From: Emiliania huxleyi CCMP1516
Taxonomy: Eukaryota
Length of the DNA stretch: 64,000 nucleotides
Direction: 5' to 3'
Assembly (NCBI RefSeq): GCF_000372725.1
Contig: NW_005201851.1
Span: forward strand, 123,953-187,952
Under the pieces are notes generated by a model. It ran no database searches and was not told the DNA's origin. It saw nothing but the letters and a program-made list of their open reading frames with translations. Below are positions 24,208 to 52,987 of the stretch, one piece after another. A program made the position numbers and the translations under genes. Every line of letters starts with the position of its first letter. Within the stretch, counting starts at the first letter, position 1.

Positions 24208-25677
24208 ATGTCCACCCTGCCGCGCCGCCGCTCGCGCCGCCTCGCCCCCGCCTCCACCGCCGCCGCCTCTTCAGACACGCCGCCGCCCGCCCGCCTCCTC
24301 GATCTCCCCACGGACCTCCTCCTGCGCGTCCTCTCCCGCTGCGACCCCGCCGACATCGCTCGCGTCGCGGCCGTCTCGCTGCTCTTTCACGCCTCGCTTG
24401 CGGTGGAGGCCATCCGCTTGTGGGCGCAAGAGCGCGGCTTCGAGCTGCCGGCGCTGCCAGTGGGCGAGAGCTGCGCCGTGCGGTGGCTGTGTCTCGCTGC
24501 GTTGCTGCGCGAGTCCAACCCGCCGGCGAGGGCGGCAGCAGGTGAGCATCACAGCCTCTTCATTGACGGCGAGGGGCGGCTCTCGTCGTGCGGCAAGATG
24601 TCCTGGATGTCAGGGCTGCTTGGCCACGGTGAGGGTGTGGCGCAGCTCAACACGCCGACCCGCCTCCCCTCGACGTTGGGCGACGAGCGCGCCGTGAGTG
24701 TGTCGGTTGGATACAGCCACAGCCTCGCCCTCACCGCCGCCGGCAGCGTCTGGAGCTGGGGCAGTGGACACGGTGGCAAGCTGGGCCACGGAGACCAGCA
24801 GGACCGGCCGCAGCCGAAGAAGGTTGAGGCCTTTGCGGGTCGGCGCGTCGTCGCCGTGTTGGCTGGTACCGCTCACAGCCTCGCCATCACCGCCGACGGA
24901 GCCGTCTGGAGCTGGGGCTATGGCTACAATGGCAAGCTGGGCCACGGCGACGAGCAGCACCAGCTGCTGCCAAAGAAGGTCGAGGCCTTGGCGGGGCAGC
25001 GTGTCGTCGCTGTGACGGCTGGAGACCACCACAGCCTCGCCCTCACCGCCGGCGGTGCAGTGTGGAGCTGGGGCTCGGGAGCCGATGGCCAGTTAGGCCA
25101 CGGCGACCGGCAGCGCCAGCTGCTGCCAAAGAAGTTCGAGGCGTTGGCTGGCCAGCGCTTCGTCGCTGTGTCGGCCGGAGGCACCCACTGCCTTGCCCTC
25201 ACTGCCGACGGAGCCTTCTGGAGCTGGGGCTATGGAGCCTATGGCCGGCTGGGCCACGGCGACACGCAGACCCAGCTGCTGCCAAAGAAGATCGTGGCGT
25301 TCGCAGGGCGGCGCATCGTCGCTTTGTCGGCTGGAGAGCACCACAGTATCGCCCTCACCGCCGACGGCGCCGTCTGGAGCTGGGGCTATGGACGCTTTGG
25401 CCAGCTGGGCCACGGCGACCAGCAGAACCAGCTGCTGCCAAAGAAGATCGAGGCCTTTGCTGGGCGGCGCGTCGTCGCTGTGTCGGCTGGAGCCGGGTTC
25501 GGCCTCGCCCTCACCGCCGACAGCGCCGTCTTTACCTGGGGCCAGGGCGACCACGCCTGCCTAGGCCACGGAGATGACCTGTCGGACCAGCTGCTGCCCA
25601 AGAAGATCGAGGCGTGGGGCGTGGTCGCCGGGGCTGTGAGGCGAAGGGCAGGTGATCCACCGTGCCCAGGGTCGTGA
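24208..25677 (+). CDS. F-box + RCC1-repeat beta-propeller protein, paralog 1, intronless
   Basis: LLDLPTDLLLRVLSRCDPADIARVAAVS F-box-like motif followed by 7 RCC1 repeats (VSAGxxHSLALTADGAVWSWGxGxxGxLGHGD). Confidence 0.9.
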   Translation: MSTLPRRRSRRLAPASTAAASSDTPPPARLLDLPTDLLLRVLSRCDPADIARVAAVSLLFHASLAVEAIRLWAQERGFELPALPVGESCAVRWLCLAALLRESNPPARAAAGEHHSLFIDGEGRLSSCGKMSWMSGLLGHGEGVAQLNTPTRLPSTLGDERAVSVSVGYSHSLALTAAGSVWSWGSGHGGKLGHGDQQDRPQPKKVEAFAGRRVVAVLAGTAHSLAITADGAVWSWGYGYNGKLGHGDEQHQLLPKKVEALAGQRVVAVTAGDHHSLALTAGGAVWSWGSGADGQLGHGDRQRQLLPKKFEALAGQRFVAVSAGGTHCLALTADGAFWSWGYGAYGRLGHGDTQTQLLPKKIVAFAGRRIVALSAGEHHSIALTADGAVWSWGYGRFGQLGHGDQQNQLLPKKIEAFAGRRVVAVSAGAGFGLALTADSAVFTWGQGDHACLGHGDDLSDQLLPKKIEAWGVVAGAVRRRAGDPPCPGS

Positions 25678-25771
25678 GAGGGAACCTTGAGAGGGAGCTT
25701 GGTTGTAAAATTCTTATTAATTCTAATTCTTGTAAAGTTCTAATTCTTTTTTATTAAATTCTTTTAAACGC

Positions 25772-26647
25772 GGTCGGAAGGGCGCTTTTGTCGCTTTCGG
25801 CAACACTGAATCATTATTTTGAAAGCCTGANNNNNNNNNNNNNNNNNNNNNNNNNNNNNNNNNNNNNNNNNNNNNNNNNNNNNNNNNNNNNNNNNNNNNN
25901 NNNNNNNNNNNNNNNNNNNNNNNNNNNNNNGGATAAACAGAGAGGAGAACCAGAGAGTGGAGTCCGGGAGAGGAAAGGATAGAGAAGGTGAGCAGGAGAG
26001 GAAGTAGAAGAGGGAGAAGGAGCAGGTCAGGTAGGAGTAAACGTGGAGGTCTTGGAATAGAAAAGAGTGGTACATATAACCTAATCATCAAAAGGGAGGG
26101 GGGTGGAGTAGTACGTCGGGGGCGGCATGGAGGGGGAGAGGAAGAGCAAGGGCGAGAGAGGGCAAGGGACCGGGCGCTGGCATACCAGGGGGGGCAGGGT
26201 GGTGGGCGGCGACCGCCGCATACCGTCCTACGGCGGGGACTATCGCTACGCCAGGGAAGACAAGGGCGTCGAAGTGCAGCTGCTGCTGTTCGAGTCGTTC
26301 GGCGGGTTCGCGAGGGGGGTCCGTGAGATCCTCCGGAAGGCGGCGGACGTGCTACAGAACAAGCTGACGCGGGCCCAGTACCTCGATGAGGCGACTTGGA
26401 CCACCAAGAGCTGGCTGGGGCTGCAGAGGCAGCGCATCTCAGTCGTTCTTCACACGGCCATCGCAGAGCAGGTCGTGAATGAGCTTGCCTGTGGGCTGTG
26501 GCGGGGGTGGGCGGGTGCACGGAGCTAAGTGCCTCGCCACCCTCGCAGGAGTCGCTTAGGCGGCTCCCGTGGTGTACCTGTGTTAGTGCCAGTGCGCGCC
26601 AGTCCCGTGCCCAGTGTTGTGCGAGGGAGTTTCCTTGTAAAATTCTT
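25772..26647 (+). mobile_element. Second copy of the RLE-type non-autonomous element (contains an N-gap)
   Basis: ORF 26127-26528 is nearly identical to the 14310-14725 translation; same 3' UTR ending ttgtaaaattctt. Confidence 0.7.
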
Positions 26648-26910
26648 CGCCCCGCCCGCCCGCCGCGCCGCGCCACCGCCCGGTGATTATTAATTATTAA
26701 TTACTTAATTTATAAATAATAATCGCCTTACCCACCGTCGCGCCGCCTCGCCCCTTCTTGCGTCGCCCGCTCCCTCACCGCGCCGCCGTCTCCCAGCGCA
26801 AATTCTTTCTCTCTATGAAAAAGAATTCAAGGTGCCAAATCTGAGTTTGGGCCATTACAATGGCCTGGGGCAAACCGCCTCCGCAGCCGGCGGCCGCCGT
26901 CGTGCCGAGC

Positions 26911-29900
26911 ATGAGCTTATCCGACGTGCGCATCCCGCTTCGCGCCGCGCGCCGCTGCCCGCGCACTCCACACGCCGCCGCGGCCGCGCGCGCCCGCACG
27001 ACCGCCGCTCCGCTCACGCCGCTCCCGCATGTGCCTGCAGCTGCTGTCGGACGAGTGGGTGCTTCAGTGGGTGGGCGGGCTGTTCGTGCTGCAGTTTGGC
27101 TGGATGGCCCTCCTCTACGTCGTCCCGTCGCCCATGTCGTCCGATGTCGGCATGGCGGCTCACCAGCTGACGGCGGCGGTGCCGTTTGCGTACGCCGCCT
27201 ACCACGGCACGCGGCTGTGGTACTTTGACGAGCAGCACGCGGCGCTGGGCGCCGACGCGCGCGGCCGCCTCTACGCCGCCTCCGAGGACGCCTTCTCCCT
27301 CGCTCGCTTCATGTTTGGGATGCAGGTCTGCTCGAGCCCCTTCCCGCGGAACCTTCCCGGAACCTTCCCTGAGCCTTCATGTTTGGGATTCAGGTCCGCC
27401 GGCCCGCTGTAGCACTCCCGGGCCTTCCCGGAACCTTCCCGGAGCCCGCCGAGACGCCCCCGAGACGCCTCCAGCTCCCCTTCCCGAGACGGCTCCCGGC
27501 GCGGTGCCTCGCTCCGGTAGGTCTTCGACCTGTTGGTGACCCTGATCGTACCGTCGCTGCGCAAGGCGCGCACCGAGGAGGACCCCCCTTCCAAACACGG
27601 ACCCTCCCTCCCCGGGGACTCGCCCCGGAGCGATCGCAGAGCGGTCGCCTCCCGCCCGCTCCGCGCCCAACACCGGATTCCTGTGGCCAGTGTGAAGCTG
27701 TGACGGTGTGAAGCTATGAGTGCCTCGGCTGGCTCTGAGTGCGTGTGTCTCCAGCAGGCGGAGCACTTGGTCCACCACGGGATGACCCTCCACCTCATAG
27801 TACCCGAACCCATCCCCTACCCCCACGGTACCGAACCCACAGGCGGAGCACTTGGTCCACCACGGGATGACCCTCCACCTCATAGTACCCGAACCCATCC
27901 CCTACCCCCACGGTACCGAACCCACAGGCGGAGCACTTGGTCCACCACGGGATGACCCTCCTCACCGCGCTGTGTGGCCTCTCGGGCCCGCTCCTCCTCT
28001 CCCCGCGGCTGCTGTGAACGGCGTCTCCTCACACCTGCAGCTGTGAACAGGCACCCTCCAGGAGGAGGAGGGCGTCTCGCTGTGAACGGCGTCTCCTCAC
28101 ACCTCCAGCTGTGAACAGGCACCCTCCAGGAGGAGGAGGGCGTCTCGCTGTGAACGGCGTCTCTTCACACCTCCAGCTGTGAACAGGCCCGTTTCTCATG
28201 TACCAGGCGCCTCATGAGTAGTTCGGACTCAGTTCGGACTCAAAGAGCGATGGAGACAGCGCCAAAGGCCGGCCACACACGTCCCGCCCCTCCTGCGCCA
28301 GGCCGCATTCTTCTTCGGCTTCGTCGAGGTCTCGTCGCTGCCGCTCGTGTTTGTTGACCTCTTCCGCCAGTTCCCGCGGCTGCACGAGGGGTCGCCCGCA
28401 GGCACACGAGATTGCACGAGATTGCACGAGATTGCACGAGATTGCACGAGGGGTCGCCCGCAGGCACACGAGATTGCACGAGATTGCACGAGATTGCACG
28501 AGATTGCACGAGGGCTCGCCCGCAGGCACACGAGATTGCACGAGATTGCACGAGATTGCACGAGATTGCACGAGGGGTCGCCCGCAGGCACACGAGATTG
28601 CACGAGATTGCACGAGATTGCACGAGATTGCACGAGGGGTCGCCCGCAGGCACACGAGATTGCACGAGATTGCACGAGATTGCACGAGATTGCACGAGGG
28701 GTCGCCCGCAGGCACACGAGATTGCACGAGATTGCACGAGATTGCACGAGATTGCACGAGGGGTCGCCCGCAGGCACACTCGCTCACCCACTCGCACCGG
28801 GCCTCGCACTTGGAATGCCGTGCCAGCTCCTGTCGCGTAGACGTGGAGACGCGAGGGACCAGCCCGGCCCTTGCCCCACACCACCTCCACCGTGTGTGGG
28901 GAGAAGTTTACCTCACCTTACCGCCCGCAGACCACGAGACGGCCCGAACCCTAGCTCTAACCGCAACCCTGACCCCAACCCTAGCCCTAACCCTAGCTCT
29001 AACCCTAGCCCTAACCCCAAACCTAACCCTGACCCCAACCCCAACCCTAACCCTGACCGCAACCCTGACCCCAGCCCTGACCCTCGCCCGCAGGCCATTC
29101 GGTCAACGAGACGGTGCGGGTCGCCTTCGCCCTCTCGTTCCTCCTGATTCGGTGCGTCCTCCGGCCGAGAGGCAGCAGAGAGGCAGCAGAGAGGCAGCAG
29201 AGAGGCAGCAGAGAGGCAGCAGAGAGGCAGCAGAGAGGCGGCCGAGATGCAGCAGAGAGGCAGCAGAGAGGCAGCAGAGAGGCAGCAGAGAGGCAGCAGA
29301 GAGGCAGCAGAGAGGCAGCAGAGAGGCAGCAGGGAGGCAGCCGGGAGGCAGCAGGGAGGTAGCCGGGAGGTAGCCGGGAGGTAGCAGCTCGGTCGCCGCT
29401 GGCCGAGAAGCACCGGCGGTTGCTGCAGCAAGCCGAGAGCGTGCGTGCGTGGCGTGGCACGCCTCGTGCTAGGTGCAACCTCGTGCAATCTCGTGCAATC
29501 TCGTGCAATCTCTGCTAGGTGCGTCCTCTGGCCGCTGGCGGTGCTGCAGCTGCTGCGTGACCTGTACGCGGTGTGGGCGGCGGGCGAACTGGAGGGGCAG
29601 CTGCAGATGGCTACCTTCTGCGTCACCTGCTCGGCGCTCCCCGCCCACACCGCGCTCCCCGCCACCCCGCCACCGCCCCCACCGCCCCCTCCACCGCCGC
29701 CCCCACCGCCGCCCCCACTGCCGCGTTGCCGCCGCCGTGTCCGCTTCGCCCTACACGCCGCCGGCCTTTCCTCGCCGCCGCCCTCGCCGCCGCCCCTCGC
29801 CGCCGCCCCTCGCCGCTGCCAGCTCTGCTGGGGGCGAGAGAGCATTGGCCGATCGTCGGCCAACCACGGCGCGCCCTTAGGTGCTAACCTTCCTGCAGCT

Positions 29901-29979
29901 GTACTGGGGCGGCAAGATCGTGCGCGCTCTGCTGAAGATGCTCGCAGGCGACAGCAGCGGCCGCGAGAAGGAAGCGTAG
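26911..29979 (+). CDS. TLC (TRAM/LAG1/CLN8) domain membrane protein, multi-exon
   Basis: Spliced reading FMFGMQ|VFDLLV...|AEHLVHHG...EVSSLPL...VAFALSFLLIR...LQLYWGGKIV; stop at 29977-29979. Start (26911 or 27029) uncertain. Confidence 0.75.
28381..28778. repeat. Compound repeat: exon-end copy (gaggggtcgcccgcaggcacac) + (GAGATTGCAC)n, ~62-bp units
   Basis: Six to seven tandem units in a TLC-gene intron. Confidence 0.9.
28948..29085. repeat. Degenerate interstitial telomere-like (CCCTAA)n tract in an intron
   Basis: ccctaa/ccctga/ccctag hexamers. Confidence 0.75.
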
Positions 29980-30524
29980 AAGGACGCGTAGAGCAGCGCG
30001 GGCGGGCGGGCAGAGGCGGGGATCGGTTTTGGCCGTCGGCAAGGGCCGTCTGGTCGATCGACTCCCTCCGCCGTCTCCGGTTTTGTTTTGTACTCCTCCT
30101 GCGGCGTGTGCGCGTTGTGCCGCCGCTGGGCGCCGCCGCCGGCCGGTCGGAGAGTCGGGTAGGCGGCAGGTACTACTGGTAGAGGCGGAGAGTGGGTGGT
30201 CTCTTGCGTGGGTGAGCCGGGGGGGGGGGGGGGGCACGGGCAGGGGGGAGGTACAGGCTACTGCCACAGTTCACCTGTGCCGGTCTGCGCGCCCAACACC
30301 TTCAGGGCTGTCGTGTCCTCGTCGTGTGTTTCGCGTCGGCCGGTCAGTTGTGCTGTTTCGAACACAAACACCGACAAGTGCGGTCTGCCGCGAGGGCGAA
30401 ATCTGCCCTGGTGAAGAGAGCTGAGCCTGAGCGCTGAGCCTGAGGCCTGAGACCTGAGAGCTGAGTTACGGCTCTAGGCCGGTCGCTCCCCCGTCTTTGG
30501 GCCCTGTTGAGTCTCGTTCCGGAA

Positions 30525-32376: not shown

Positions 32377-32424
<48 letters not shown>

Positions 32425-34435: not shown

Positions 34436-35527
34436 ATGACAGCACGCCTCAGCATCGAGACGCTCGTTGAGCGCGTCCGCGGCGGCACCACCACCCAGAA
34501 GAAGGATGCGGCAGACAAGCTGCGCGACCGAGCCGACGAGTGGGAGGCGATCATCCATGCTGGCGGCTTCCAGGCGCTCGTCGACCTTGCTCGCAATGGC
34601 AGCAACCGAGGGGTGGGGAGGGTGGCGGCGGCCGAAGCGCTGGAACGCCTTGCAGAGAAGGGCGCCTCCAGCACGATCGTCGAGGCTGACGGCGGCATCC
34701 AGGCGCTCGTCGACCTTACTAACGGCAGGCTGCCTCAAGCGGCCCGCGCTCTGGGCTACCTTGCAGAGAACGGCGCCGGGAGCAAGATCGTCGAGGCTGG
34801 CGGCATCGACGCGCTCGTCCACCTTGCTCGCGTCTTCACGGGGGACGGCGGTCATGACGTCGGATGGTCGGCCGCGTTGGCACTAAGCAAGCTTGCTCGC
34901 TTCGTCGAACTCGCAGAGAAGATCAAGGAGGCGGACGGCATTGGAGCGCTCGTCGCACTGGCACGCTGTGACTGGCACACGGAGAGAGAGATGGCAGCGT
35001 TGGCGCTGGGCAACCTGGCGTGCCACGGCCTCGTCTATTGCACGGCCATCAAGGAGGCCGACGGCTTCGATGCCCTGAACAGGCTTGCCGGCTATGGCGA
35101 CGGCCAAGCAAATGCGGCCGAGTACGCGCTGGGCATGATCAAGACGCACTATCTCGCCTCGGCCGACTGGGGCGCGTACCTGGCGCGCTACAACGACCTG
35201 ACCGAATGCCTCGCACTATCTCACCACGCGGCGCGCGACCACTTTATCAACCACGGCTTCAAGGAGGGCCGCGACGCTTCACCGGCAGCGTCGGATGAAT
35301 CGCAGCCGGCAAAGCGCTTGAAGGCTGAGGCGGAGGCAGAGGCTGAGGCAAATGCAGAGGCAGGGCAGTCAACCAAGCAGGACGCTGTCGGAGGGGCGTC
35401 GTCGTCCGGCGCGGGCGAGACCGATTTGGCGGAGGCGGAGGCGGAGGCGGAGCAGAAGAAGGCGGAGGCGGAGGCGAGCAGTCGTAGCATCGGCATCGGG
35501 CGCGCAGCAGATGAAGGCGAGGCTTGA
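34436..35527 (+). CDS. Armadillo-repeat protein with a C-terminal DWxxYLARYxDL...HFxxHGxxEGR motif
   Basis: About 5 ARM repeats (IVEAGGIDALVxLA...AAxALxxLA), intronless over this span. Confidence 0.8.
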   Translation: MTARLSIETLVERVRGGTTTQKKDAADKLRDRADEWEAIIHAGGFQALVDLARNGSNRGVGRVAAAEALERLAEKGASSTIVEADGGIQALVDLTNGRLPQAARALGYLAENGAGSKIVEAGGIDALVHLARVFTGDGGHDVGWSAALALSKLARFVELAEKIKEADGIGALVALARCDWHTEREMAALALGNLACHGLVYCTAIKEADGFDALNRLAGYGDGQANAAEYALGMIKTHYLASADWGAYLARYNDLTECLALSHHAARDHFINHGFKEGRDASPAASDESQPAKRLKAEAEAEAEANAEAGQSTKQDAVGGASSSGAGETDLAEAEAEAEQKKAEAEASSRSIGIGRAADEGEA

Positions 35528-37743: not shown

Positions 37744-39174
37744 TCAATCCCGCGACCACACCTCGATCTTCTTGGGCAGCAGCTGGTTCGACACGTCCCC
37801 TCCGTGGCCTAGGCAGCCGTAGCGGCCCTCGCCCCAGCTCCAGACAGCTCCGTCGGCGGTGGTGGCGAGATTGTACGCGAGCGCAGCAGACACAGCGACG
37901 ACGCGCTGCCCAGCAAAGGCCTCGACCTTCTTCGGCAGCAGCTGGCGCTGCCGGTCGCCGTGGCCCAGCTGGCCATCTTCGCCTAGGCCCCAGCTCCAGA
38001 CGGCGCCCTCGGCGGTGAGGGCGAGGCTGTGAAGACCTCCAGCCGCCACAGCGACGACGCGCTGGCCAGCCAAGGCCTCGATCTTCTTGGGCTGCCACTG
38101 GCGCTGCTCGTCGCCGTGGCCCAGCTTGCCAAAGGCTCCCCAGCCCCAGCTCCAGAAGGCGCCGTCGGCGGTGAGGGCGAGGCTGTAACCGCGCCCCGCC
38201 GACACAGTGACGACGTGCTGCCCTGCAAAGGCCTCGACCTTCTTCGGCAGCAGCCGGCTCTGCTGGTTTTGCTCGTCGCCGTGGCCCAGCTCGCCCAAGC
38301 CTCCACAACCCCAGCTCCAGACGGCGCCGTCGGCGGTGAGGGCGAGGATGTGGCCGCTTCCAGCCGACACAGCGACGACGCGCTGGTCAGCCAAAGCCTC
38401 GATCTTCTTCGGCAGCAGCTGGTCCTGCTCGTCGCCGTGGCCCAACTTGCCAGAGTTTCCATTGCCCCAGCTCCAGACAGCTCCGTCGGCGGTGATGGCG
38501 AGGCCGTGCATCTCTCCCGCCGACACAGCGACAACGCGCTGGCCAGCAAAGGTCTCAATCTTCTTCGGCAGCAGCTGGTCCTGAGTGTCGCCGTGGCCTA
38601 GCCGGCCAGAGCCTCCACTGCCCCAGCTCCAAACGGCGCCGCTGCCGGTGAGGGCGAGGCTGTGGAATGCTCCAACCGACACGCTCACGACGCGCTCACC
38701 GCTCAGCGTCGACGTTAGGCGGGTCGGCGTGTTGAGCCGCGTCACGCCATCGCCGTGGCCGAGTACTCCCGGCGTCCAGCTCTCAGCCGAGCCGCACGAC
38801 GAGAGCCGCCCCTGGCCGTCGATGAAGAGGCTGTGCTGAAAGCTTGCCGCCACCCTCGCCGGCGGGTTGGACTCGGACAGCAGCGCAGCGAAGCACAGCC
38901 ACCGCACGGCGCAGACCTCGCCCTCTGGCAGCGCCGGCAGCTCGAAGCCGCGCTCTTGCGCCCACAAGCGGATGGCCTCCACCGCAAGCGAGGCGTGAAA
39001 GAGCAGCGAGACGGCCGCGACGCGAGCGATGTTGGCGGGGTCGCAGCGAGAGAGGGCGCGCACGAGGAGCTCCGTGGGAAGGTCGAGGAGGCGGGCGGGC
39101 GGCGGCGTGTCTGGCGAGCGGGCGGTGGAGACGGAGGCGAGGCGGCGCGAGCGGCGGCGCGGTGGGGTGGACAT
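37744..39174 (-). CDS. F-box + RCC1-repeat protein, paralog 2
   Basis: Same N-terminal F-box-like motif and 7 RCC1 repeats, 476 aa. Confidence 0.9.
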   Translation of the reverse strand: MSTPPRRRSRRLASVSTARSPDTPPPARLLDLPTELLVRALSRCDPANIARVAAVSLLFHASLAVEAIRLWAQERGFELPALPEGEVCAVRWLCFAALLSESNPPARVAASFQHSLFIDGQGRLSSCGSAESWTPGVLGHGDGVTRLNTPTRLTSTLSGERVVSVSVGAFHSLALTGSGAVWSWGSGGSGRLGHGDTQDQLLPKKIETFAGQRVVAVSAGEMHGLAITADGAVWSWGNGNSGKLGHGDEQDQLLPKKIEALADQRVVAVSAGSGHILALTADGAVWSWGCGGLGELGHGDEQNQQSRLLPKKVEAFAGQHVVTVSAGRGYSLALTADGAFWSWGWGAFGKLGHGDEQRQWQPKKIEALAGQRVVAVAAGGLHSLALTAEGAVWSWGLGEDGQLGHGDRQRQLLPKKVEAFAGQRVVAVSAALAYNLATTADGAVWSWGEGRYGCLGHGGDVSNQLLPKKIEVWSRD

Positions 39175-39557
39175 CGCGAGAAAAAGAAAATTTGTGAGAA
39201 AAAGAATTCAAACGCGATGTCGTGCGAGAAAAAGAAATTCGCGCGGGCTCGAGAATTTACTTATCGATGCCCGCCGCCGTTCGGAACGCCGGCGTGGAGC
39301 CTTGTTCGCAGCCGGGGTCCCTGGCGCCCTTCCCCTTGAGTCTTCATGAGAGCCTCGCCTGCGCGCAACGTGCTTGATGCGTTTCGCCGTCTCGAGTCCC
39401 GAGGCCCGAGTCGCGTTGGTGAGAGCTTTTCCGCTAGTACCACGCAGCCCGACTCACACAGGCTCGGGCAGAGGTGGAGCCCCACAATTGTTAATGTGCA
39501 AAAGGGTCAAGGCCGCGTCCACACGATACCGTCCCCGCGACCTCTCAATCGGCATTG

Positions 39558-40660
39558 TCAATCCCGCGACCACACCTCGATCTTCTTGGGCAGCAGCTGG
39601 CGCGATAGGTCCTCTCCGTGGCCTAGGCAGCTGCCGTCGCCCCCGCCCCAGGCAAAGATGGCGCCGTCAGTGGTGATGGCGAGCCTTTGCTCGACTCCCA
39701 CCGACGTAGCGACGACGCGCCGCCCCGTCAACGCCTCAATCTTCTTCGGCTGCAGCTGGTTCTGCTGATCGCCGTGGCCCAACCGACCGTTGCCACCGCG
39801 GCCCCAGCTCCAGACGGCGCCGTCGGCAGTGATGGCGAGGCTGTGGGCGTCTCCAGCCGACACAGCGACGACGCGCTGGCCAGCCAAGGCCTCGATCTTC
39901 TTGGGCAGCAGCTGGTCCTGCTCGTCGCCGTGGCCCAGCTTGCCATCTTCGCCAAGGCCCCAGCTCCAGGCGGCTCCGTTGGCGGTGAGGGCGAGGCAGT
40001 GCCCGACTCCAGCCGACACTGCGACGACGCACCGACCTGCAAAGGCCTCGACCTTCTTGGGCAGCGGCTGGTCCTGCTGGTCGCCGTGGCCCAACATGCC
40101 CCAGTATCCACCGCCCCAGCTCCAGACGCTGCCGTCGGCGGTGATGGCGAGGCTGTGAAAACCTCCAGCCGACACGGCAACGACGCGCTGGCCAGCAACG
40201 GTTGCCACCTCCGTGGGCAGCAGCTGGCTCTGCTCGTCGCCATGGCCCAATCGACCAAAGCCTCCCCGGCCCCAGCTCCAGACAGCTCCGTCGGCGGTGA
40301 GGGCGAGGCTGTGCTGCCACCCAGCCGACACGGAGACGACGCGCAATTTAGCAAACCCCTCGATCTTCTTGGGTTGCCACTCGTGCAGCTCGACGCCATG
40401 GCCCAACAGGCCGTGGCGTCCACTGCCCCAGCTCCAGACAGCGCCGTCGGCGGTGAGGGCGAGGCTGTGGCCGGTTCCAACCGACACGCTCATGGCGCGC
40501 TCGCCGCCCAGCGTCGACGGGAGGCGGGTCGGCGTGTTGAGCCGCGTCACGCCCTCGCCGTGGCCGAGAAGGACTGGGTTGTAGAACGGCGAAGAAAGCA
40601 GCCCTCCTGAGAAGTATGTGCTACCCGCAATCACAAGGGCCCTCGCCGCGGCGGGCGGCC
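39558..40660 (-). pseudogene. RCC1-repeat paralog 3, 5'-truncated (no F-box)
   Basis: Open RCC1 repeats with the same C-terminus (KIEVWSRD) and 3' flank as paralog 2. The N-terminus is replaced by unrelated DNA, including a diverged RLE-element 3' UTR at ~40733-40815. Confidence 0.7.
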
Positions 40661-41188
40661 CGCGTGCAGACAGCTTGCGGCTGTTTGCGTCACCATGGTC
40701 GCCCCCGCGTGACACTTCCGTTTTTCTTTCGGTGCTAAGTGCATTGCCGCTCTTAACGGAGTCGCTTAGGCGGCTCCGGTGGTGTGCCGGTGATAGTACT
40801 AGCACGCGCCAGTTCGCACCTGTGTCGAGCCTAAGAAAACAGACACGCCAAACGAGGGATGGGACGAGGACAGGGTCCCCACCTGCACGAGCAGGATTTT
40901 GGAAGGACGATCAGGGGGACAGGTGGGGCTCTCCTGCTCCTGACAAGGGACACGACAGGCTCGCAGCGCGGTGCGCGGTGGACTCCCACATCCACTGGCG
41001 GTCTCATCTCAGTCTAGCGACCTGCCTCCAGCTTGTCGCTGGCAGTCTCTCCTACCACAGGCACACTGACACAGGGGTGGCAGGGGCGGCGGCACGAGTC
41101 TCCCACATACTATGCGGGCCTCACTAGAGGTGCGGCCTGTGCGTGTCCTCGCCCTTGAGGGGGGAGGGGAAGGGGCTGTGTGTCTGTG

Positions 41189-41191
<3 letters not shown>

Positions 41192-41277
<86 letters not shown>

Positions 41278-41292
41278 GTGCGTGTGCGTGTG
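41192..41292. repeat. (GT)n microsatellite
   Basis: Direct reading. Others: (CA)n 54175-54326, (GA)n 46621-46678, (CT)n 63653-63697. Confidence 0.95.
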
Positions 41293-42093: not shown

Positions 42094-45000
42094 ATGTGGT
42101 CGCTCACGCTCGGTGCGGCGCTCGCCAACGTCGGCTGCTCCGTCTCGCTAGTGCTCGTCAACAAGGCTCCGGAAGATACAGCCCCGGCCTGACCCTTCCC
42201 GCTCCACCTCCGCCGCCATCCGCCGTCCTCCGCCGCCAGCCGCGAAGCCGTGGCACACCTCCGACCCCGCAGGCGGTCTTCTCGGCTGGCTTCAACTTCC
42301 CCATGTCGCTCACCTTCCTCCACTTTGCCTTTACCGTCGCGTTCTACCGCCTGCTCGCAGCGTGCGGCGCCTTTGAGCCTCAGTCGCTGCCGCACGCAGA
42401 GGCGTTCAAGGTTGCCGGGTTTGGCGTCGGAAGCATCGGCTTCATGAACATCTCGCTCCACCTCAACTCGGTCGGCTTCTACCAGATCACGAAGCTCGCC
42501 ATAGTGCCGTGCACGCTGCTCGCACAGGCACCTTTTTAAGCCCTCGCCAGCCGCCTCTCGGCCGCACCTCGGCCGCACCTCGGCCGCCCACCTCGACGGC
42601 CTCTCGGCTCCACCTCGCGCAGGCGCTCCTGCACGACGTGCACGCCTCGCGCCGTGTGAAGCTCTCGCTCCTCCTCCTCCTCCTCGGCCTCGCCGTCGCC
42701 ACCGTCTCGGACGTGAGACACTTCCTAGACACTTCCTAGACGCGTCCTAGACACCGTCTCGGACGTGAGACACTTCCTAGACACTTCCTAGACGCGTCCT
42801 AGACACCGTCTCGGACGTGAGACACTTCCTAGACACTTCCTAGACGCGTCCTAGACACCGTCTCGGACGTGAGACACTTCCTAGACACTTCCTAGACGCG
42901 TCCTAGACACCGTCTCGGACGTGAGACACTTCCTAGACACTTCCTAGACGCGTCCTAGACACCGTCTCGGACGTGAGACACTTCCTAGACACTTCCTAGA
43001 CGCGTCCTAGACACCGTCTCGGACGTGTGCAGCTCCCCCTAGAAGCGAGTGTGCATTCTTGCTCCTCAGCGCAATCTCGTCTTCCGCCCGCTGACGTCGG
43101 GTGTACTCAGCACGCAGGTCCAGCTCAATGCGCCCGGCCTCGTCCTCGGCTTGCTCGCCGTCGCCACCACCACAATCTTCCAGATCTGGCAAGGCTCCAA
43201 GCAAAAGGCGACACTTCCTAGACACTCCCTAGACACTTCCTAGACACCACCGTCTTCCAGATCTGGCAAGGCTCCAAGCAAACGGTGCTCGAGCTGCCTC
43301 GCCACGCCGCCGTGTCGGCCGGCTGATTCTTTCTTTTCATCCATCCGTCGTCAGTCGTAGGAGCTCGAGCTGTCCGCGACGCAGCTGCAGGCGGCCGTCG
43401 CCAGCAGTGGCGGCGTCACCTCTCCACCGCTTTGCATCGCCTCACAGCCTTTTCTTTCACAGGCGGCCGTGGCGATTTGGCAGGTGCCGCAGGCGGTCGC
43501 TCGCCCGCTTGTTCACAGCTCGAGGTGTGAAGAGACGCTGTTCACAGGTGCCGCAGGCGCTCGCGGCGGCGATTGCGCTGGAGAACCTCTGCGCAGGCCC
43601 GCCTCGCCTTGAGAGATTGCACGAGATTGCACGAGATTGCACGAGATTGCACGAGATTGCACGAGATTGCACGAGGTTGAGCAGCGATGTGTGCAGCCGC
43701 TTCAGAGGCCCGGCCATACGAACTGCTGTCTGTGGCGATGCCTCTCCCTGAGAACGCACACACCGCCTCGTGTGGTCACGCCCCGTGTATCCCGCGAGTG
43801 CGTGTGCCCCGTCGCCCGGTGCGAGGGACGTGTCACACACACACACTCACTGATGACGGACTGGCTGACTGAGAGGAGGCCGTGCTCAAGGGCTCCCCCC
43901 TGGACGAGTGTGTGATGAGTGGCTCGCGTCTTGAAGGGGCGTACGGCCTGGCTCCCTAGTACGGACGCACGTGACCCCGCCCACACCTCTGCGCAGGTTT
44001 GCCTCCCGCACTCCGCTCGGAGGAGCCAGGAGAGTGCCGGACGGCGGTCGGGTTCGCCCAGCAAGCCGCGAACGGCGGCGGCGGCGACGGGGGCGGCGGC
44101 GCGCGCACACTGGCGCTGGTGGTGCTGACCTGCTTCGTCGCCCTTGGGACGAACGTCTCCTCGTTTTGCCTCATCGGCCGCACGTCGGCAATCACCTTCC
44201 AGGTGGTCGGGCGACCTGCCTCGTATCTCCGCACGTCTCCCTCGCATCTCTCCGGAATTCTCCGCCCCCAAGGATTCGGTACTTAGGCGGCGGGGGATCT
44301 GGATTCGGTACTTTAGGTGGTCGGGCATGCCAAGACCTGCCTCGTCCTCGCGGGCGGGTTTTTGCTCTGGCCTCCCGCGGACACGTCGCACTTGCCCACG
44401 CAGCTCGTCGGCGTCTCCGTCGCCGTCCTCGGCTGCGTCCTCTATTTCTTTTTTAACCTGTGTTTCTTTTTTAGGCGTCTCGGTCGCCGTCCTCGGCTGC
44501 GTGCTCTACGGCCATCTCAAGCTGAGCGAGGCTACCGGCCGGAGAGACTTGTGCGACCGCCTCTGCCCCGCGCCGCTGCTGTGGGTCGCGACAGACCCCC
44601 CGCCGAGGTTCGAGATACAACCCGAGATACAGCCGAGATGCAGCTGGAGATACAGCCGAGATGCAGCCCGAGATACAGCCCGAGATACAGCCGAGATACA
44701 GCCCGAGATACAGCCGAGACACAGCGGGGATGCAGCCGAGATGCAGCCGATCTAGCCGAGATCCGGACGAGATCCTGCCGAGCTCCTGCCGAGCTCCTGC
44801 CGAGGCCCAGCTCGCATACAGCCGAGGTACGTACAGCCGCGGCTGCACCACCCCGTCCACACCTCCCCCCGCGAATCAGGTACGAGCCGCTGCCTGCGTC
44901 GGGGGAGCTCATCCCGGCGGCGGAGCTGTCCGCGTCGGACGCCAAGGTGGCTTAATTATTCATGATTAATTAATAGCAATCTTAGTTCATTCAGCGGACC

Positions 45001-45413
45001 TGTCCGCGTCGGACGCCAAGGTGGCTTAATTATTATGATTAATTAATAACAATCTTAGTTCATTCAGCGGACCTGTCCGCGTCGGACGCCAAGGTGGCTT
45101 AATTATTCATGATTAATTAATAGCAATCTTAGTTCATTCAGCGGACCTGTCCGCGTCGGACGCCAAGGTGGCTTAATTATTCATGATTAATTAATAGCAA
45201 TCTTAGTTCATTCAGCGGACCTGTCCGCGTCGGACGCCAAGGTGGCTTAATTATTATGATTGATTAATAGCAATCTTAGTTCATTCAGCGGACCTGTCCG
45301 CGTCGGACGCCAAGGTGGCTCTGCGGCGGCCGGGCCCGGGGGGAGGGGCTGCAGACGAGGCGGCCGACGGCGGGGGGGCGGAGGCGCGGTCCGACGAGGA
45401 GCGGCGGAGATGA
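42094..45413 (+). CDS. Nucleotide-sugar transporter (TPT/SLC35E, UXT/URGT-like), multi-exon
   Basis: NVGCSVSLVLVNK, FPMSLTFLHF, MNISLHLNSVGFYQITKLAIVP, IGRTSAITFQ|VVGHAKTCLVL. Confidence 0.9.
44927..45320. repeat. ~74-bp tandem repeat (exon end + AT-rich filler) x5, probably forming the last intron
   Basis: Unit ctgtccgcgtcggacgccaaggtggcttaattattcatgattaattaatagcaatcttagttcattcagcggac. Confidence 0.9.
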
Positions 45414-46635: not shown

Positions 46636-46679
<44 letters not shown>

Positions 46680-48606
46680 ACGAGCGAGACAGTCCGCGAG
46701 AGGCAGAGTGAGGGAGCGAGCGCACCCGCGCCGCGCCGCGTCTCCGACTCGGACTCGGACTCCGACTCCTCCTTGTCCGAGACCTGCAGCCTCGTCGCCC
46801 AGTCGATGCAGCTGCCTGGTGTCCGGGAAGGGTCACATGGAGTCACATGGAGTCAGAGGGCTGGGGGGGCTGAGCGGCGAGGTCGGCGGCGAGTGCGGTG
46901 GCGAGGCAAGTGGCGGCGGGTAGGGTGGCGGCGGGAAGGATGGAGCGGGCGGGTGTTGGGGCGCAGGGCGGCGGTGGGGAGGGAGGTAGGCTGGAGTGCG
47001 ACGGGGATGCCTGCATCGGTGACGGTGGTTGCGCTGGCAGCGTGCGCGCGCGCGCGGTCGCCGAAGGAGGGGGACTCGAACTCGCGCTTGTCCTCGGAGT
47101 CGTGGGACGCACGCGAGACTGGCAGCTGCCCAGAAATTCGCCTCCGCACCGGCGCACCGCTTCCCACCGCGGCTACCGTGGCGGCAGGCCGGGTGGCGGC
47201 GGCGGCGGAGCTGCTGGCGTCGGCGTGGGTGGCGGAGCCGCCGGTGGCGGTGGCGGTGGTGGCGGCGGGATTTCCGAAGGTGTGGGCGACGGCGAGAGTA
47301 TAGGCGGGGTTGCGTTGGCCCGTGTCGGTGGGCTCACGCCTCTCGTACCAGTGGAGCGGCTGCGCCCCGTCTGCGCCCGTTGAGTCGGAGAGGACTCCCA
47401 TCAGCTCGGGCTCGGTGTTGGCCCAGCTCATGAAGCTCTCCTCCGAGTCAAACTGGACGATAGCCTGACCTGGGTACAACCTAGCCCACGCATCCTGAGC
47501 ATTCGCCAGCATCGCGGCCGAAGTGTGTAGCACAGGCCGCTCGTCGTCTCGGCGCTCGCTGCTCATGTGGTGTTGGCACAACGAGGGCTCGAGCCGCGCT
47601 TGATTGCCACACAAGTAGCAACTACGAGAGGATATTGCAATCGCTGGCAGAAGTCAGCGCTAGATTGTAGTCACACGGAGGCGGAGACGTCGAAGCACGA
47701 TGCCTGGGAGCTCTGCCAACATTCCACAATTCGAAGGTCCGGCGATCGTCGGCGATTTCGAGGGCGACGAGATCCCGAGGAGATCCCCGCCGAGATCCAG
47801 CCGAGATACACCGAGGTGATGACGAGAAAAGAACCCTGCCGACATCAAGGCAGCTCCCTTGCGTCACTACGTGCCTCCCCGAGTCTGGCGTGTGAGTGTG
47901 AGCACACACACAACCCGAGTCTCTCTCTCTCTCTCTCTCTCTGGCGTTTGTGCCCCGTTTGTGCCGCGTCCCGTGCCCCCGAGTTCATTCAGCAACGCGG
48001 GTTCGCGCAGTTTCCACAGGATCAAGCCACGCTAACCTACAGTAAGAGCGCCTGCAGGCTTGAATGCCATGGGACTCGACTCCCCGATGTCGGCTTTATC
48101 ATTTACGGCTCTAGACCGGTGGAGTCACACGAGGGTTATCCCTGACACGTATGTCATGGGTTTGCCGGGGGATCGCAAACTTGTGGGGGGTGCGGAATAC
48201 AAACACCGCTGCGCAGTGGCTTGCCCTTTCGCGCCCATTTGGAGATGCCACCAACGCGTCTGAGCGAGCCAAATGTGTGGTGGGCAGCCTCTTTCCTTTT
48301 TTGAGGGCGCCTTCGTTGTAATACAAACGGATGGTCACTTGTAGTCACACCCACACATCGCACCGCACCGCGCGCACGCCCACGCGCGCACCTTTTCTTT
48401 TTTTATCGGCTGGGCCAAGAAAGACGCCTCACTCACAGCACACAGCACACTGGCACGACAAGGGACTGACTAGGGCACACTAGCACACATTGGCACACCA
48501 AGAAAGAAGCGGATCCTCACCGCTTTGGCGGCCAAAATCATCCTGCGAAGAGTGAGCCATGGCTGGATCGACGGCGGGCTACTCGAAGGATGGCCCGATC
48601 GGGGGG

Positions 48607-49003
48607 TAGAGGCTACAGCCGCGCAAAAAAGACCGCCGCGCAACGAAGACCGCTGTCGTCGCACGCTGCTGACGCCCAGGATGACAGAATTGGCCTTCGC
48701 CAGACTGAGGACTATTGTGCGCCTTGGCGAGGCGCTTCCGGTGGTATTTTTTTAGAGCTGGTTCGGCATGCACGAGCGCGTGGGTGTGTGTGAGCACCGC
48801 GGGTCTTTTTTGCGATCCCGGGTCTTGTGCTTGTGCGTGATGCTGTGTGGCATGTGGTCGTCTGCAGTCAGTATAGACATGATAGGGGTGGACTATAGGT
48901 CCAGTAGGTCAATTGATCTCGCTTAGTCGCATCGTGGGGAGCTCATCCCGGGCCGTCGCAGGCCGCCGCGCATCGGGTCTTTTTTGCGAAGCTGTAGCCT
49001 CTA
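48607..49003. mobile_element. MITE-like element, 28-bp imperfect terminal inverted repeats bounded by TA
   Basis: tagaggctacagccgcgcaaaaaagacc (48607-48634) vs ggtcttttttgcgaagctgtagcctcta (48976-49003), 2 mismatches. Confidence 0.55.
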
Positions 49004-49029
49004 ACAGCGACGGCGATTGCGAACCCGCC

Positions 49030-50917
49030 ATGGCCCTCATGCGAACAAGCCGGGGCCCCAAGGTCAAGCTTACCCTGGAGGCCGGCCCTGGCGGCATCGT
49101 TTGTGCCACGCTGACAAAGGAGCAGCGCACGGAGGCGATCAAGAGGCCCTCGGTCAAGGAGATGGTCGAGGTGTTCGAGCCGATCTACAAGAAGGTCATG
49201 CCTTCCGCCTCCGTGGTGGCACATCCGTAGCCACCCTCTCCGTCTCCCCCCCAACGCCCCCCGTCGCCCATGCCACCCTCATAGGTGCTGCTCGATGGCC
49301 TCCTCGGAAAGAAGGTGGCGCTCTTTGCAGAGGGCCGCCGCCGCCGCGTCCCCTGCGGGCCCAGCCTGGCGCCCTACCTGAATGCGCCTTCCGACCAAGA
49401 GTTGCACTTCAAGGTGCGTTTCTGCCCCGAGGCGAAGTTCCTCGCACCCACTCGCGGCGACAAGGCTGGGCCGAATGCCGATTCGGCACCCGACAACGAT
49501 GGGTGGTACAAGAAGGGCCCCAAGGTGCGTTGCTGCGTGATGACATTCTCACCCCAACAGCCCGTTACCCCCTCCCCCGCCCCTTGCCTGCTTGCAGGAA
49601 CTGTTCACGTGGGCGGAGGCAGCGGCCTCCTCGCGCTCATCCTATCTGGATGGGCTCAAGCAGTGCTTCGAGGCCGGCCAACTTTCCTTTGCTCAATGCG
49701 TGTCGAAGGTCAAGCTGGCTGTGCAGCAGGCGCAAGTGGACAACGTCGTTGTGCCCCTGCCCAAAGACAAGGCGATTGCGAAGTCCGCCAACCGCACCCG
49801 TAAGATGCACACCCGCAGGATGCACATGCTCGGCCGCAACCGAAGCGTCGGCAAGACCGACGTCGACGGCTTTGATTCGGCCGAGTCAAGCTTTAGTGAT
49901 CGGCTCGGCCCGCTGAGCCCCGGCCTGCGCGGGTGGCGCAAGCTCGCCTTGCGGGAGGCGGCGGCCAAGGAAAAGGCTGTGTTCGAGGCCCCACGCAAGG
50001 AGATGAAGAAGGTGGAGGACATCTACTATGACGAGAAGGCTGCGGCCGAGGCCATGGCCAAGGCTGCGGCGTTACGCCTTCTTGCCTCGGCCCTTCTTGT
50101 CAAGGCGTACCGCCGGTTGAGCGTCACGCACCACCCCGACAAGGGATTCTCAAGCTCGCCGCTGTGCCCCGCGTCGTAGGTGAAGCGCAAGGCAGAGCAG
50201 GCTGCGGAGGCGGGGCGTGAAGCGAGCCAGGACGGCGCTGCCATCTCCGTCGCCTCCGAGGCCATGGCCAAGGCTGCGGCGTTACGCCTTCTTGCCTCGG
50301 CCCTTCTTGTCAAGGCGTACCGCCGGCGCCTTCTTGCCTCGGCCCTTCTTGTCAAGGCGTACCGCCGGTTGAGCGTCACGCACCACCCCGACAAGGGATT
50401 CTCAAGCTCGCCGCTGTGCCCCGCGTCGTAGGTGAAGCGCAAGGCAGAGCAGGCTGCGGAGGCGGGGCGTGAAGCGAGCCAGGACGGCGCTGCCATCTCC
50501 GTCGCCTCCGACGACGCCTCCGAGGACGCTGTCATAGAGCGGGCTCACCACCTCATTGTCCCCGCCACCGATCCAACCACTGTCTCGCAGGCCGATGCGG
50601 CGTCGCAGCCCAAGCCGCCGCTCGAGCTGTCCGTGATCGTTGTTACTTACATGAAGCCCGAAGGCAGGAAGAACGAGAAGGAGTTCTCCGTGGACCATAC
50701 GGTGAAATATGTTCTCGAGTCTTTCGGATTCACGGGCCGCGAGCACCGCTTCCTGCAAAACCACGCTTCTACCCCTCTACACACGTCTGATGATCGCCTC
50801 TCCGACTTTCTCGACCCGGGAGCCAAGATCACGCTCGACCACGGCGGACTTTCTGGTGGATGCCCCTCTTCCTCAACGGCACCCGCTGTACCCGCGGCAC
50901 TCGCGGCAATGACATGA
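49030..50917 (+). CDS. Hypothetical spliced gene or pseudogene with a duplicated partial J-domain (HPD) and a ubiquitin-like C-terminal segment
   Basis: GT-AG introns near 49195-49284 and 49525-49597; KAYRRLSVTHHPDKG occurs twice; last exon ends KITLDHGGLSGG. Confidence 0.4.
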
Positions 50918-51683
50918 ACAATTGATATTCGCCCGACTACCGTCGCCGCCGCCGCCGTCGCCTAGCCCGTCGCCACGGATCCAGCCGCCACCGTTGCCTC
51001 CCTCTCACCACTGCCTCTCTCGCCACCGCCCGCCCTCGCCGCCACCCGCCCCGCCGCCGGGGCCTCACTACCGCCTCCTCTGCGCCGTCTCCCACGCCGC
51101 CGCCGCCTGCTTCGCCCCCGCCCGCCTCGCCGTCGCCCTCGTCGCCACTGCCGCCGCCGTCGCTGTCGTCGCCAGTGCCACCGGACCGCCGCATCACCAC
51201 ATACTGGGGGGCGGCGGGGCGCGGGGGCGACTGGGTCCGCCTCGCTCCGCCCTTTTCCCGCCACGGCCCTCGTCACCAAGCTGTCAAGTCACCGCCGCCG
51301 ACCCAGCAACGCCTACCCCGGGGGCCACCGCCAGGCCAGCTGACTCCCTCACCGCCGACTCAATCGCCTCCAGCGCTAGCCCGGGGCTCCTGCCGTCATC
51401 CGCGCCGCTGCCCGGGGCTCCGCTGTCGCCCTCGCCGCTGCTAGGTAGCTTCACGCAGTCGCTGCTCCGCCCGCTCGTCGCTAGCTTCGCGCCGAGAGCC
51501 ACCGCGTGGCAGCGAAGGGATGGTTCAGGCCGCGGCGGTGCGACAGGGCGGCCGCGTTGGCGGGGGTGGACTCAGCGGTGTTGGCCAGGGATGGTGACGG
51601 CAATGGTGGCAATGTCTCAGGACACGGCAGTGGCGGTGACGGTCGGGACGGGTTCGGCTGCTGCAGCGGCGCGAAGTCGGTCG

Positions 51684-52114
51684 TTAGGGTTAGGGTTAGG
51701 GTTCGGGTTAGGGTTAGCTCAAGGTTAGGGTTAGCTTTCCGGCACTGGCCATGGCTACCGCGCGCTAGGCCATGGCCTCGGCCGTCACGGCCACACTCGA
51801 GGATGGCTCCGATCAACATGGACCATGGCTGAGCCGCCGCTCAGCCACCACGCCACATGGCCGGGCCGTACAGCCAAACGGAGGGCCATGGCTGCAGCCG
51901 ATCGCCGGCGTATGGCCTGATGGCCCAGCCATGGCCACGCCGGGCAAGCCGGCTCCGCCATGGCTAAGCCGACGATTGAGCCATCGGGCCATACACACAG
52001 GGATCGGCCGTAGCCATGGCCTCCGAGTGGCCAGATTGACACGCCCCTGCCGCGTCTCGGCCATGGCGCGGAGCATCGCCTAGCCACCCCGGCCATATGG
52101 TTCGGAGGCGCTGT
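51684..52114. repeat. (TTAGGG)n tract followed by CCATGG-rich satellite-related sequence
   Basis: ttagggttagggttaggg at ~51684-51733; 51925-52114 is a diverged copy of the 189-bp unit. Confidence 0.75.
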
Positions 52115-52214
52115 NNNNNNNNNNNNNNNNNNNNNNNNNNNNNNNNNNNNNNNNNNNNNNNNNNNNNNNNNNNNNNNNNNNNNNNNNNNNNNNNNNNNNN
52201 NNNNNNNNNNNNNN

Positions 52215-52987
52215 TGTCGGCTGGACGCTTCCACAGCCTCGCTATCTCCGCCGACGGACCCTTCTGGAGCTGGGGTGGTGGAGCCTTTGGCCAGCTGGGC
52301 CACGGCGACCAGCAGGGCCAGCTGCTTCCAAAGAAGGTCGAGGCCTTCGCTGGGCGGCGCATCGTCGCTGTGTCGGCTGGAGAGCACCACAGTATCGCCC
52401 TCACCGCCGACGGCGCCGTCTGGAGCTGGGGCTGGGGAGCCTATGGCCGGTTGGGCCACGGCGACGAGCAGGGTCAGCCGCTGCCCAAGAAGATCGAGGC
52501 CTTTGCTGGCCGGCGCATATTAGCTGTGACGGCTGGAGACGCGCACAGCCTCGCCCTCACCGCCGATGGCGCCGTCTGGAGCTGGGGCGATGGATACGGC
52601 GGCAAGCTGGGCCACGGCGACGGGCAGAACCAGCTGCTGCCCAAGAAGATCGAGGCCTTGGCTGGCCCGCGCGTCGTCGCTGTGTCGGCCGGAGGCAACC
52701 ACAACCTCGCCCTTACCGCCAACGGTAGTGTCTGGAGCTGGGGCTGGGGAGCCGGCGGCCAGTTGGGCCACGGCGACGAGCAGACGCAGCTGCTGCCCAA
52801 GAAGGTCGAGGGTTTTGCTGGCGAGCGCGTCGCCGCTGTGTCGGCTGGAGAGTACCACAGCATCGCCATCGCCGACGGCGCCGTCTTCACCTGGGGCGGG
52901 GGCGACGGCGGCTGCCTAGGCCACGGAGAGGACCTGTCGAAGCAGCTGCTGCCCAAGAAGGTCGAGGCGTGGTCGTTGGGGCCATAG
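52215..52987 (+). CDS. RCC1-repeat paralog 4, 5' end lost in a gap
   Basis: Five RCC1 repeats with the family C-terminus (GHGEDLSKQLLPKKVEAW). Confidence 0.8.

Follow-up and report, generated by a model that had tools for sequence, protein, structure and literature searches.

A short out-of-register tract of near-identity between two clustered F-box/RCC1 genes of Emiliania huxleyi, probably left by gene conversion

Do the blades of repeated propeller genes evolve in place, or do they pass from one gene copy to another? The question is raised by a stretch of 64,000 nucleotides of the haptophyte Emiliania huxleyi CCMP1516 (contig NW_005201851.1, positions 123,953 to 187,952), hereafter the window, in whose own coordinates all positions are given. 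By motif scan, listing of open reading frames (ORFs) and tblastn we find in it five paralogs, A to E, of a family that combines an F-box with a seven-blade RCC1 propeller. The initial annotation of the window had counted four of them, the fifth, E (58050-59456, forward strand), lying outside the range it covered, and had proposed that half-blade modules recombine through conserved WSWG and QLLPKK frameworks. We describe here a significant, bounded and out-of-register tract of near-identity between two of these clustered paralogs. On balance we favour the explanation that it is a short ectopic gene-conversion tract, within a family that exchanges blades and diversifies their loops.

Paralogs A, B and E share one layout: an F-box-like head of about 128 residues, a position-specific unit 1, five internal units of 52 residues (units 2-6) and a tail. 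We name the units by gene and number, so that A5 is unit 5 of paralog A. Paralog A (24208-25677, forward strand) is complete at 489 amino acids, with head, unit 1, internal units 2-6 and closing tail. Of paralog D (52215-52987, forward strand) the 3' part is present, with a partial unit 2, units 3-6 and the tail. Positions 25306-25387 of A and 52352-52433 of D are identical at 81 of 82 nucleotides, the sole mismatch lying at 25324/52370. In A the tract forms the second half of unit 5, the second-last internal blade (codons ...GRRIVALSAGEHHSIALTADGAVWSWG); in D it forms the second half of unit 3, the fourth-last blade. The initial annotation had reported this near-identity at about 25307-25387 and 52352-52432, in the same two blades and with different loops after each copy; all of this is borne out, the coordinates being right to within one base.

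The tract spans from the G of FAG through ...GEHHSIALTADGAVWSWG, after which A and D continue into different loops. Its left bound (25305/25306 in A) falls inside the F-A-G codons, its right bound (25387/25388) just after WSWG. The 63-nt exact core has only two copies in the window, 25325-25387 and 52371-52433, both on the forward strand, and was matched in none of 100 dinucleotide shuffles. Outside the tract, the flanks in the same register are identical at 112 of 137 positions on the left and 121 of 150 on the right (81-82%). The two genes lie on the same strand about 27 kb apart, and the tract is two blades out of register; this offset presumes the usual blade count in D, and holds anyway when blades are counted from the 3' end.

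We assessed the tract against the 24 internal units of the five genes. The run of 46 polymorphic sites shared by A5 and D3 has a global P of 0.004 in a GENECONV-like permutation of polymorphic columns (2000 permutations). Codon-column shuffles that keep site positions (2000 shuffles) were run on the 21 units of exactly 52 amino acids, leaving out B4, E3 and D6; they give P = 0.0035 for the longest exact run, of 62. The identity of the second halves of A5 and D3, 91 of 96, has P = 0.0017 (3000 shuffles). As in an ectopic conversion tract, the run of identity goes beyond the background divergence of the pair and is bounded on both sides. The second halves of A2 and E4 give a weak signal in the half-blade shuffle test (P = 0.024). 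An apparent circular swap of first halves, in which A5 resembles D4 (50/60) and A6 resembles D3 (53/60), was rejected as not significant in the same test.

Apart from this pair, the internal blades carry neither gene nor position signal, though they share column-specific codons. Maximum likelihood gives the 24 internal units a star-shaped tree: two of its 21 inner forks are flagged, A5+D3 (98/93) and E4+E5 (95/88), and 14 fall under a support of 80. Since the tree needs 15 label changes for position and 15 for gene, and trees with labels shuffled 500 times need 15.2 and 15.3, blades follow neither position nor gene tree, contrary to what evolution in place would give. Trees of half-blades disagree between the two halves: A5 and D3 are sisters in the second half (99/96) and not in the first, and other units swap partners between the half trees (A2, for example, joins C4 in one and E4 in the other), at forks that rest on 60-96 nucleotides. 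Blade pairs from one gene (46) have a scaffold nucleotide identity of 0.861; between genes the value is 0.865 for blades at the same position (46 pairs) and 0.861 for blades at other positions (184 pairs), and the synonymous divergence (dS) of the scaffold in these three classes is 0.30, 0.32 and 0.32. Hypervariable codons are about 52% identical in all three classes, and mean amino-acid identity from blade to blade is 66-72%. Convergence through codon bias was rejected as the cause of this likeness, the choice of synonymous codon being specific to the column: for Gly, Leu, Ala, Val and Ser, codon identity is 0.73-0.88 within a column and 0.29-0.49 between columns. There are GGA and GGC columns for Gly, GCT and GCC columns for Ala, and Phe is written TTT despite the GC-rich genome.

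The heads tell a history unlike that of the blades. Paralog B (37744-39174, reverse strand) is complete at 476 amino acids and E at 468; compared with one another, the heads of these two and of A show 89-91% identity at a dS of 0.10-0.19. Where two heads have the same residue, the codons are identical in 99/107, 91/104 and 94/99 columns (92.5%, 87.5% and 95%) for the three pairs. For blades compared in register the counts are 139/178, 128/169 and 142/172 (78%, 76% and 83%), and the difference between heads and blades has Fisher p-values of 0.0015, 0.019 and 0.0042. Over 800 nucleotides upstream and downstream of the paralogs we find no similarity except a 14-nt leader and two short downstream patches shared by B and C. 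Similarity confined to the coding sequence, together with uneven divergence along the gene, fits exchange among coding sequences and not a simple segmental duplication. Retroposition was also considered as the cause of the coding-only similarity and was set aside: similarity starts 14 nucleotides before the ATG, nothing is common past the stop codons, and no poly(A) remnant is evident.

The leader, TTCTTTTYCTCGCG, stands directly 5' of the ATG of A (24194-24207, forward), E (58036-58049, forward) and B (39175-39188, reverse). It is pyrimidine-rich, recurs in 26 of 80 related loci, and may serve the family as a core promoter, an initiator or a translational element. Extra partial copies of it lie upstream of B.

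Paralog C (39558-40805, reverse strand) has neither F-box head nor ATG. Its homology to the family is limited to positions 40595 down to 39561, and its tblastn alignment to residues 129-476 of B. Its scaffold differs from the majority at 22, 15, 11, 5 and 28 positions in units 2 to 6 (Poisson heterogeneity p = 0.0005), which makes its blades the most uneven among 37 genes tested: units 2 and 6 are heavily degenerate and unit 5 is near the majority. C is possibly a decaying copy that has been partly overwritten by conversion.

The window holds a small sample of a large family. Of 7988 candidates scored, more than 3149 count as relatives at E <= 0.001. The closest of these have 68-76% identity and are largely of marine metagenome origin; within the top 120, names are attached only to two proteins of Emiliania huxleyi CCMP1516, with 68-69% identity. 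From 80 related metagenome loci, nearly all from two assemblies, and the window we took 251 internal units, belonging to 52 ORFs and the five window genes. Nine of 61 ORFs with non-contiguous units, 26 units not exactly 52 amino acids long and three duplicate assemblies were left out, and 215 units were kept, 21 from the window and 194 from the metagenome loci. Identity among them is as flat as in the window: 0.800 within a gene, 0.804 at the same position and 0.798 at other positions. At the protein level, 39 of 125 family proteins have uniform units, and in these 39 a single consensus fits units 2-5, with no positional signal.

Long exact matches are in excess among these units. Runs of at least 45 nucleotides number 105, against 45 +/- 13 in codon-column shuffles, about twofold, a count reached by 0.5% of 200 shuffles. 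They occur in 6 of 148 pairs of adjacent units of one gene and in 0.50% of other pairs (p = 0.00013); pairs at the same position are not enriched (21 of 3969). The number of unit hits also varies among the 125 proteins: 97 have seven unit hits, 15 have eight, 11 have six, one has nine and one has four, some of these proteins being perhaps partial or misassembled. The eight-hit proteins suggest eight-blade variants or an expansion of the repeat in assembly. Two database homologues (P0001 and P0002), with eight unit hits, have one extra full internal blade.

The fold of these proteins gives the variable positions a common place. A structure model of B has a mean predicted local distance difference test score of 80.4, with most propeller blocks at 86-96, and is a predicted seven-blade propeller. 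In Foldseek its top match is UVR8 (template-modelling score 0.92-0.95, target-normalised; root-mean-square deviation 1.6 Å over 370 columns), followed by the RCC1-like domains of HERC2; by sequence search the same two score at E = 2e-94 and 2e-83. Eight positions of the unit, 1, 3, 4, 6, 12, 14, 36 and 37, are hypervariable, with 12-19 residue types each. In the model the strands of a unit cover positions 15-20, 29-34, 38-43 and 48-52, so that the long loop between strand 4 and the next strand 1 takes up positions 1-14, and the turn from strand 2 to strand 3 positions 36-37. Alternate loops of a beta-meander share a side, and the topology therefore predicts one common face of the propeller for all eight variable positions. 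Aligned to UVR8, positions 36 and 37 fall on the W and R of GWRHT and position 1 on the W after WG, residues which we take to belong to the face of UVR8 that serves dimerisation and partner binding. The variable face is likely the substrate-binding face.

Not all of the evidence points towards gene conversion, and several findings weigh against it. The A5/D3 tract is the single globally significant one in the window, the next candidates being A6/E4 (P = 0.11) and B5/C5 (P = 0.13), and a megablast comparison of 55 genes, a small fraction of the family, gave no tract of at least 97% identity longer than 46 nucleotides, bar the three duplicate assemblies. The lower divergence of the heads could reflect a different constraint and not a different history. 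Part of the twofold excess of long runs could come from units being unequally close to the majority, which the shuffles even out. Mean unit identity is 0.858 between window and metagenome, 0.853 within the window and 0.863 within the metagenomes, so that homogenisation specific to one genome is not apparent, in sources that may be one species complex. Positive selection on the loop positions would follow from the 75-92% of unit pairs that differ in residue at the hypervariable positions, and not from a codon model. Linkage disequilibrium among the 215 units is at the level of independent sites beyond about 10 nucleotides (r2 of 0.005-0.008, against 1/n = 0.0047). This lack of linkage is as compatible with a star-like burst plus recurrent mutation as with very frequent exchange; the decay of linkage, already at background beyond 10 nucleotides, was therefore set aside as uninformative between the two.

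Such a burst, in which one blade was amplified to five and the gene to hundreds of copies with no ongoing exchange, would leave A5/D3 as an isolated event or a chance survival. It agrees with the star-like blade tree and the loss of linkage, with distances of units from the majority that are near Poisson (mean 11.1, standard deviation 3.8 against 3.3 expected), and with blades that are uneven at p < 0.05 in only 4 of 37 genes. We nevertheless think it unlikely. A burst predicts equal synonymous divergence of heads and same-position blades, and the heads are less diverged (Fisher p = 0.0015-0.019); it predicts flanks that can still be aligned at a dS of 0.1-0.2, and none are seen. The enrichment of long runs in adjacent blades and the pristine unit 5 of the degenerate C are left unexplained, and chance is excluded for A5/D3 at P of about 0.002-0.004. 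A faulty assembly is the other concern: the contig that carries D opens within the repeat, next to an N gap, and mis-recruited reads from A or another copy might have put an A-like patch in the D consensus. The D tract does lie 138 nucleotides from the contig edge at 52215, a point to be added to those against conversion, and A is followed by an N gap at 25831; the family is also highly multicopy, with 1004 to 1799 Logan contigs per run matching a 1.2-kb stretch at 97% or more. A chimera with a single switch would not, however, leave such a patch, with identity of about 81% to its left and to its right, and the absence of positional signal across the family is independent of the A/D tract. Parts of the D region, never more than half of its sampled words, occur in 16 public runs of nine studies; they come as Logan unitigs of mostly 31-98 nucleotides, since the de Bruijn graph collapses this family. 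Every 31-mer of 52300-52469 is present exactly in four runs of four studies, and unitigs cross both edges of the tract (52313-52357, 52345-52379, 52413-52446 and 52423-52464). At 31-98 nucleotides these unitigs cannot link the codons of EHHSIA to the right flank of D across a 42-nt multicopy block, which also counts against our reading; they give neither a sign of a chimera nor proof against one. Taken with the two-sided flanks, they leave an artefact quite improbable in our judgement. Contigs from RNA runs (X11) match parts of D exactly; we do not count them as evidence of transcription.

Selection could in principle have made the two half-blades alike, if a half-blade with E-H at the variable positions followed by HSIA were functionally favoured. 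HSIA is indeed common, occurring 46 times in 41 of 120 database homologues, and GEHHS occurs five times in four proteins, at unit indices 1-4. The whole string GEHHSIA is found in none of the 120, and selection on the protein leaves unexplained the synonymous identity over 27 codons, with scaffold dS at about 0.3 elsewhere; a run this long is attained by 0.35% of shuffles that retain each column's codon frequencies. Convergence of this kind is very improbable. We give equally little credence to a programmed device in which cassettes of blades or half-blades are shuffled, somatically or clonally, into expressed genes. Its analogues would be the assembly of variable lymphocyte receptors (VLRs) in lampreys and antigenic variation in bacteria and parasites. 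A fixed framework around hypervariable loops, the right edge of the tract directly after the conserved WSWG block, and the presence of an F-box-less C and a 5'-incomplete D that might be imagined as donors all suit such a device. Yet a tblastn search with B as query finds five gene-sized copies in the window and no promoterless, silent array of blade cassettes, and the layout of the VLR, vlsE and pseudo-V type, an expression site served by silent cassette arrays, is not seen in the window. A, B and E bring their own start codons, each preceded by the conserved leader, only one tract is significant, first halves show no sharing, and the missing 5' end and head of D are explained by the N gap at 52115-52214, at whose edge D starts; tblastn finds no 5' part of D upstream of that gap in the window. 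On our reading the A5/D3 tract is ordinary germline evolution of a multigene family and not a programmed diversification device.

The modular scheme of the initial annotation must be trimmed accordingly. Recombination of half-blades survives as one out-of-register exchange between A and D, and a regular system at WSWG and QLLPKK does not: the right edge of the tract lies after WSWG, but the left edge lies in FAG and not at QLLPKK. In the first halves we find no excess of sharing (best pair 54/60, P = 0.50). Block structure at the scale of the half-blade is not visible either, because linkage of common variants is gone beyond about 10 nucleotides among the 194 units from related metagenome loci. 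Two strings had been noted as recurring at non-equivalent blades. LGEDG is present in B6 and C5 as described, and its sharing is within chance (first halves of B6 and C5 53/60, rank-5 P = 0.07); GDAHSLA is present in C5 and D4 and likewise stays within chance, with no test significant at the nucleotide level. In the 120 homologues the blade indices of both shorter strings vary: there are 17 instances of GEDG, in 16 proteins, and 12 of GDAHS, in 12. Regular half-blade modules at WSWG and QLLPKK that give combinatorial diversity go beyond the evidence.

We now return to gene conversion and propose how the A/D tract may have arisen. The second half of a blade, its variable loop residues included, would have been copied between A and D out of register. 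More generally, blades would be exchanged both inside and among this family's genes by gene conversion and probably by unequal crossing-over as well. Such exchange would keep the scaffold uniform while moving loop variants around, and selection would diversify the loop positions on the likely substrate-binding face. A5/D3 would then be the most recent exchange visible in this cluster.

The closest parallel that we found is a fungal one. In Podospora anserina the NWD/HNWD genes (het-d, het-e and het-r among them) carry WD40 repeats that evolve in concert, both inside each of ten genes and among them (Paoletti, Saupe & Clave 2007, PMC1805685), and diversifying selection acts on four positions per repeat, which lie at the interaction surface (Dyrka et al. 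2014, PMC4986451). Both families have a beta-propeller of similar repeats that cluster by neither gene nor position; here the absence of clustering is seen in the 24-unit tree and in the identity classes. The exchange of repeats inside and among the fungal genes, their varying repeat number and their few hypervariable positions per repeat on the interaction face have likely counterparts in the proposed blade exchange, the varying number of unit hits and the eight hypervariable positions predicted to share one face. The differences are equally clear: the blades here are 52-residue RCC1 units and not WD40 repeats, the head is F-box-like and not of the NACHT or HET (NLR-like) kind, and the organism is a haptophyte and not a fungus. 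Amino-acid identity between blades is about 70% here, under the threshold of about 85% used in PMC4986451, so that the likeness lies in the mode of evolution. No process like repeat-induced point mutation is implied in our case.

The matches closest in sequence and fold, UVR8 and the RCC1-like domains of HERC2 and HERC1 (4D9S, 4DNW and 7Q40 among others), are 36-37% identical. UVR8, a single-copy photoreceptor, lacks an F-box, and its blades are position-specific; the genes described here have near-copy blades in which Trp is replaced by variable residues. From the side of the head, the domain content makes the A-E family predicted substrate receptors of SCF (Skp1-Cullin-F-box) ubiquitin ligases. 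Expanded F-box families have reportedly been treated by Thomas in Genome Research in 2006. In nematodes and plants, large F-box families of substrate receptors have fast-evolving target-binding domains (PMC8120010, PMC3719486). They share with the present family an F-box head linked to a protein-binding domain that varies, a large, clustered and lineage-specific expansion, and variation in the putative substrate-binding part; they use FBA, FTH, Kelch or LRR domains where this family uses an RCC1 propeller. In the full-text literature we found no F-box family with an RCC1 propeller of homogenised blades and out-of-register exchange. Nor did we find there a paper on an expanded haptophyte F-box/RCC1 family, an expansion that the supplements of the Emiliania genome paper may list; the available parts of PMC4438323 and PMC3834299 hold nothing that bears on it. 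Literature matches for "RCC1" together with Emiliania are names of culture-collection strains.

The assignment of all five genes to the family is firm at the level of Pfam. RCC1 scores 246-316 bits (cut-off 21.7) in five to seven stretches, and the RCC1-like domain 283-468 bits (cut-off 150), in each of the five paralogs; A has seven RCC1 stretches (E = 4e-96) and the RCC1-like domain at E = 4e-140, B has seven stretches and D five. The head of A is above both F-box cut-offs (F-box-like 24.9 bits against 24.3, F-box 22.8 against 20.5). Those of E (23.2 bits) and B (19.8 bits) fall just under the F-box-like cut-off and are 89-91% identical to the head of A.

Around these genes the window is eukaryotic sequence, presumably nuclear, of 63.8% G+C on a gapped scaffold, with five N runs (777 nucleotides at 20936-21712 and 100 nucleotides each at 25831, 33102, 52115 and 54592), low coding density and recognisable genes of eukaryotic kind. 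A U-box ORF (55842-56693, reverse strand, E = 3e-11), another type of ubiquitin ligase, stands between D and E. Other neighbours are an AP2-domain ORF (11990-14383, reverse), an Armadillo-repeat ORF (34436-35524, forward) and an MMACHC-like protein. Further repeats are also present. Directly after the N gap 54592-54691, a tandem repeat with a 189-nt offset and copies 99.3-99.7% identical (54692-55553) overlaps long ORFs on both strands. Shorter arrays lie at 28381-28779 (62 nt, 99%), 44920-45320 (74 nt, 98%) and 8439-8997 (83 nt, 89%), the first of which translates into low-complexity strings rich in Gly, Trp and Gln. A 287-nt inverted pair near the ends of the window (3357-3643 and 62402-62688, 99.3% identical) possibly consists of copies of an interspersed element. 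In another inverted pair, of 570 nucleotides and 92.5% identity, one copy (14210-14772) adjoins the AP2-domain gene and the other (26090-26647) lies past the N gap downstream of A.

A conversion tract between clustered paralogs is in itself textbook; the greater interest lies in a very large haptophyte F-box set whose near-copy blades, alike down to synonymous codons, differ almost solely at the eight loop positions predicted to share one face. Loci of this family are hard to assemble, and mosaics found in them need care before use. One may go further and ask whether the haptophyte F-box/RCC1 family serves as a germline repertoire for recognition, the algal counterpart of the fungal NLR (nucleotide-binding domain and leucine-rich repeat) repeat receptors. 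This is a doubtful proposal; if true, out-of-register blade exchange and selection on the eight loop positions would keep making new propeller faces that send quickly evolving targets, for instance giant-virus proteins or those of other parasites, to ubiquitination. If the variable face binds substrates, the fungal NLR pattern of conserved repeats with a hypervariable interface would be extended to a new fold, a new partner and a new lineage, and an ecologically dominant alga would possess a large and fast-changing set of ubiquitin-ligase specificities.

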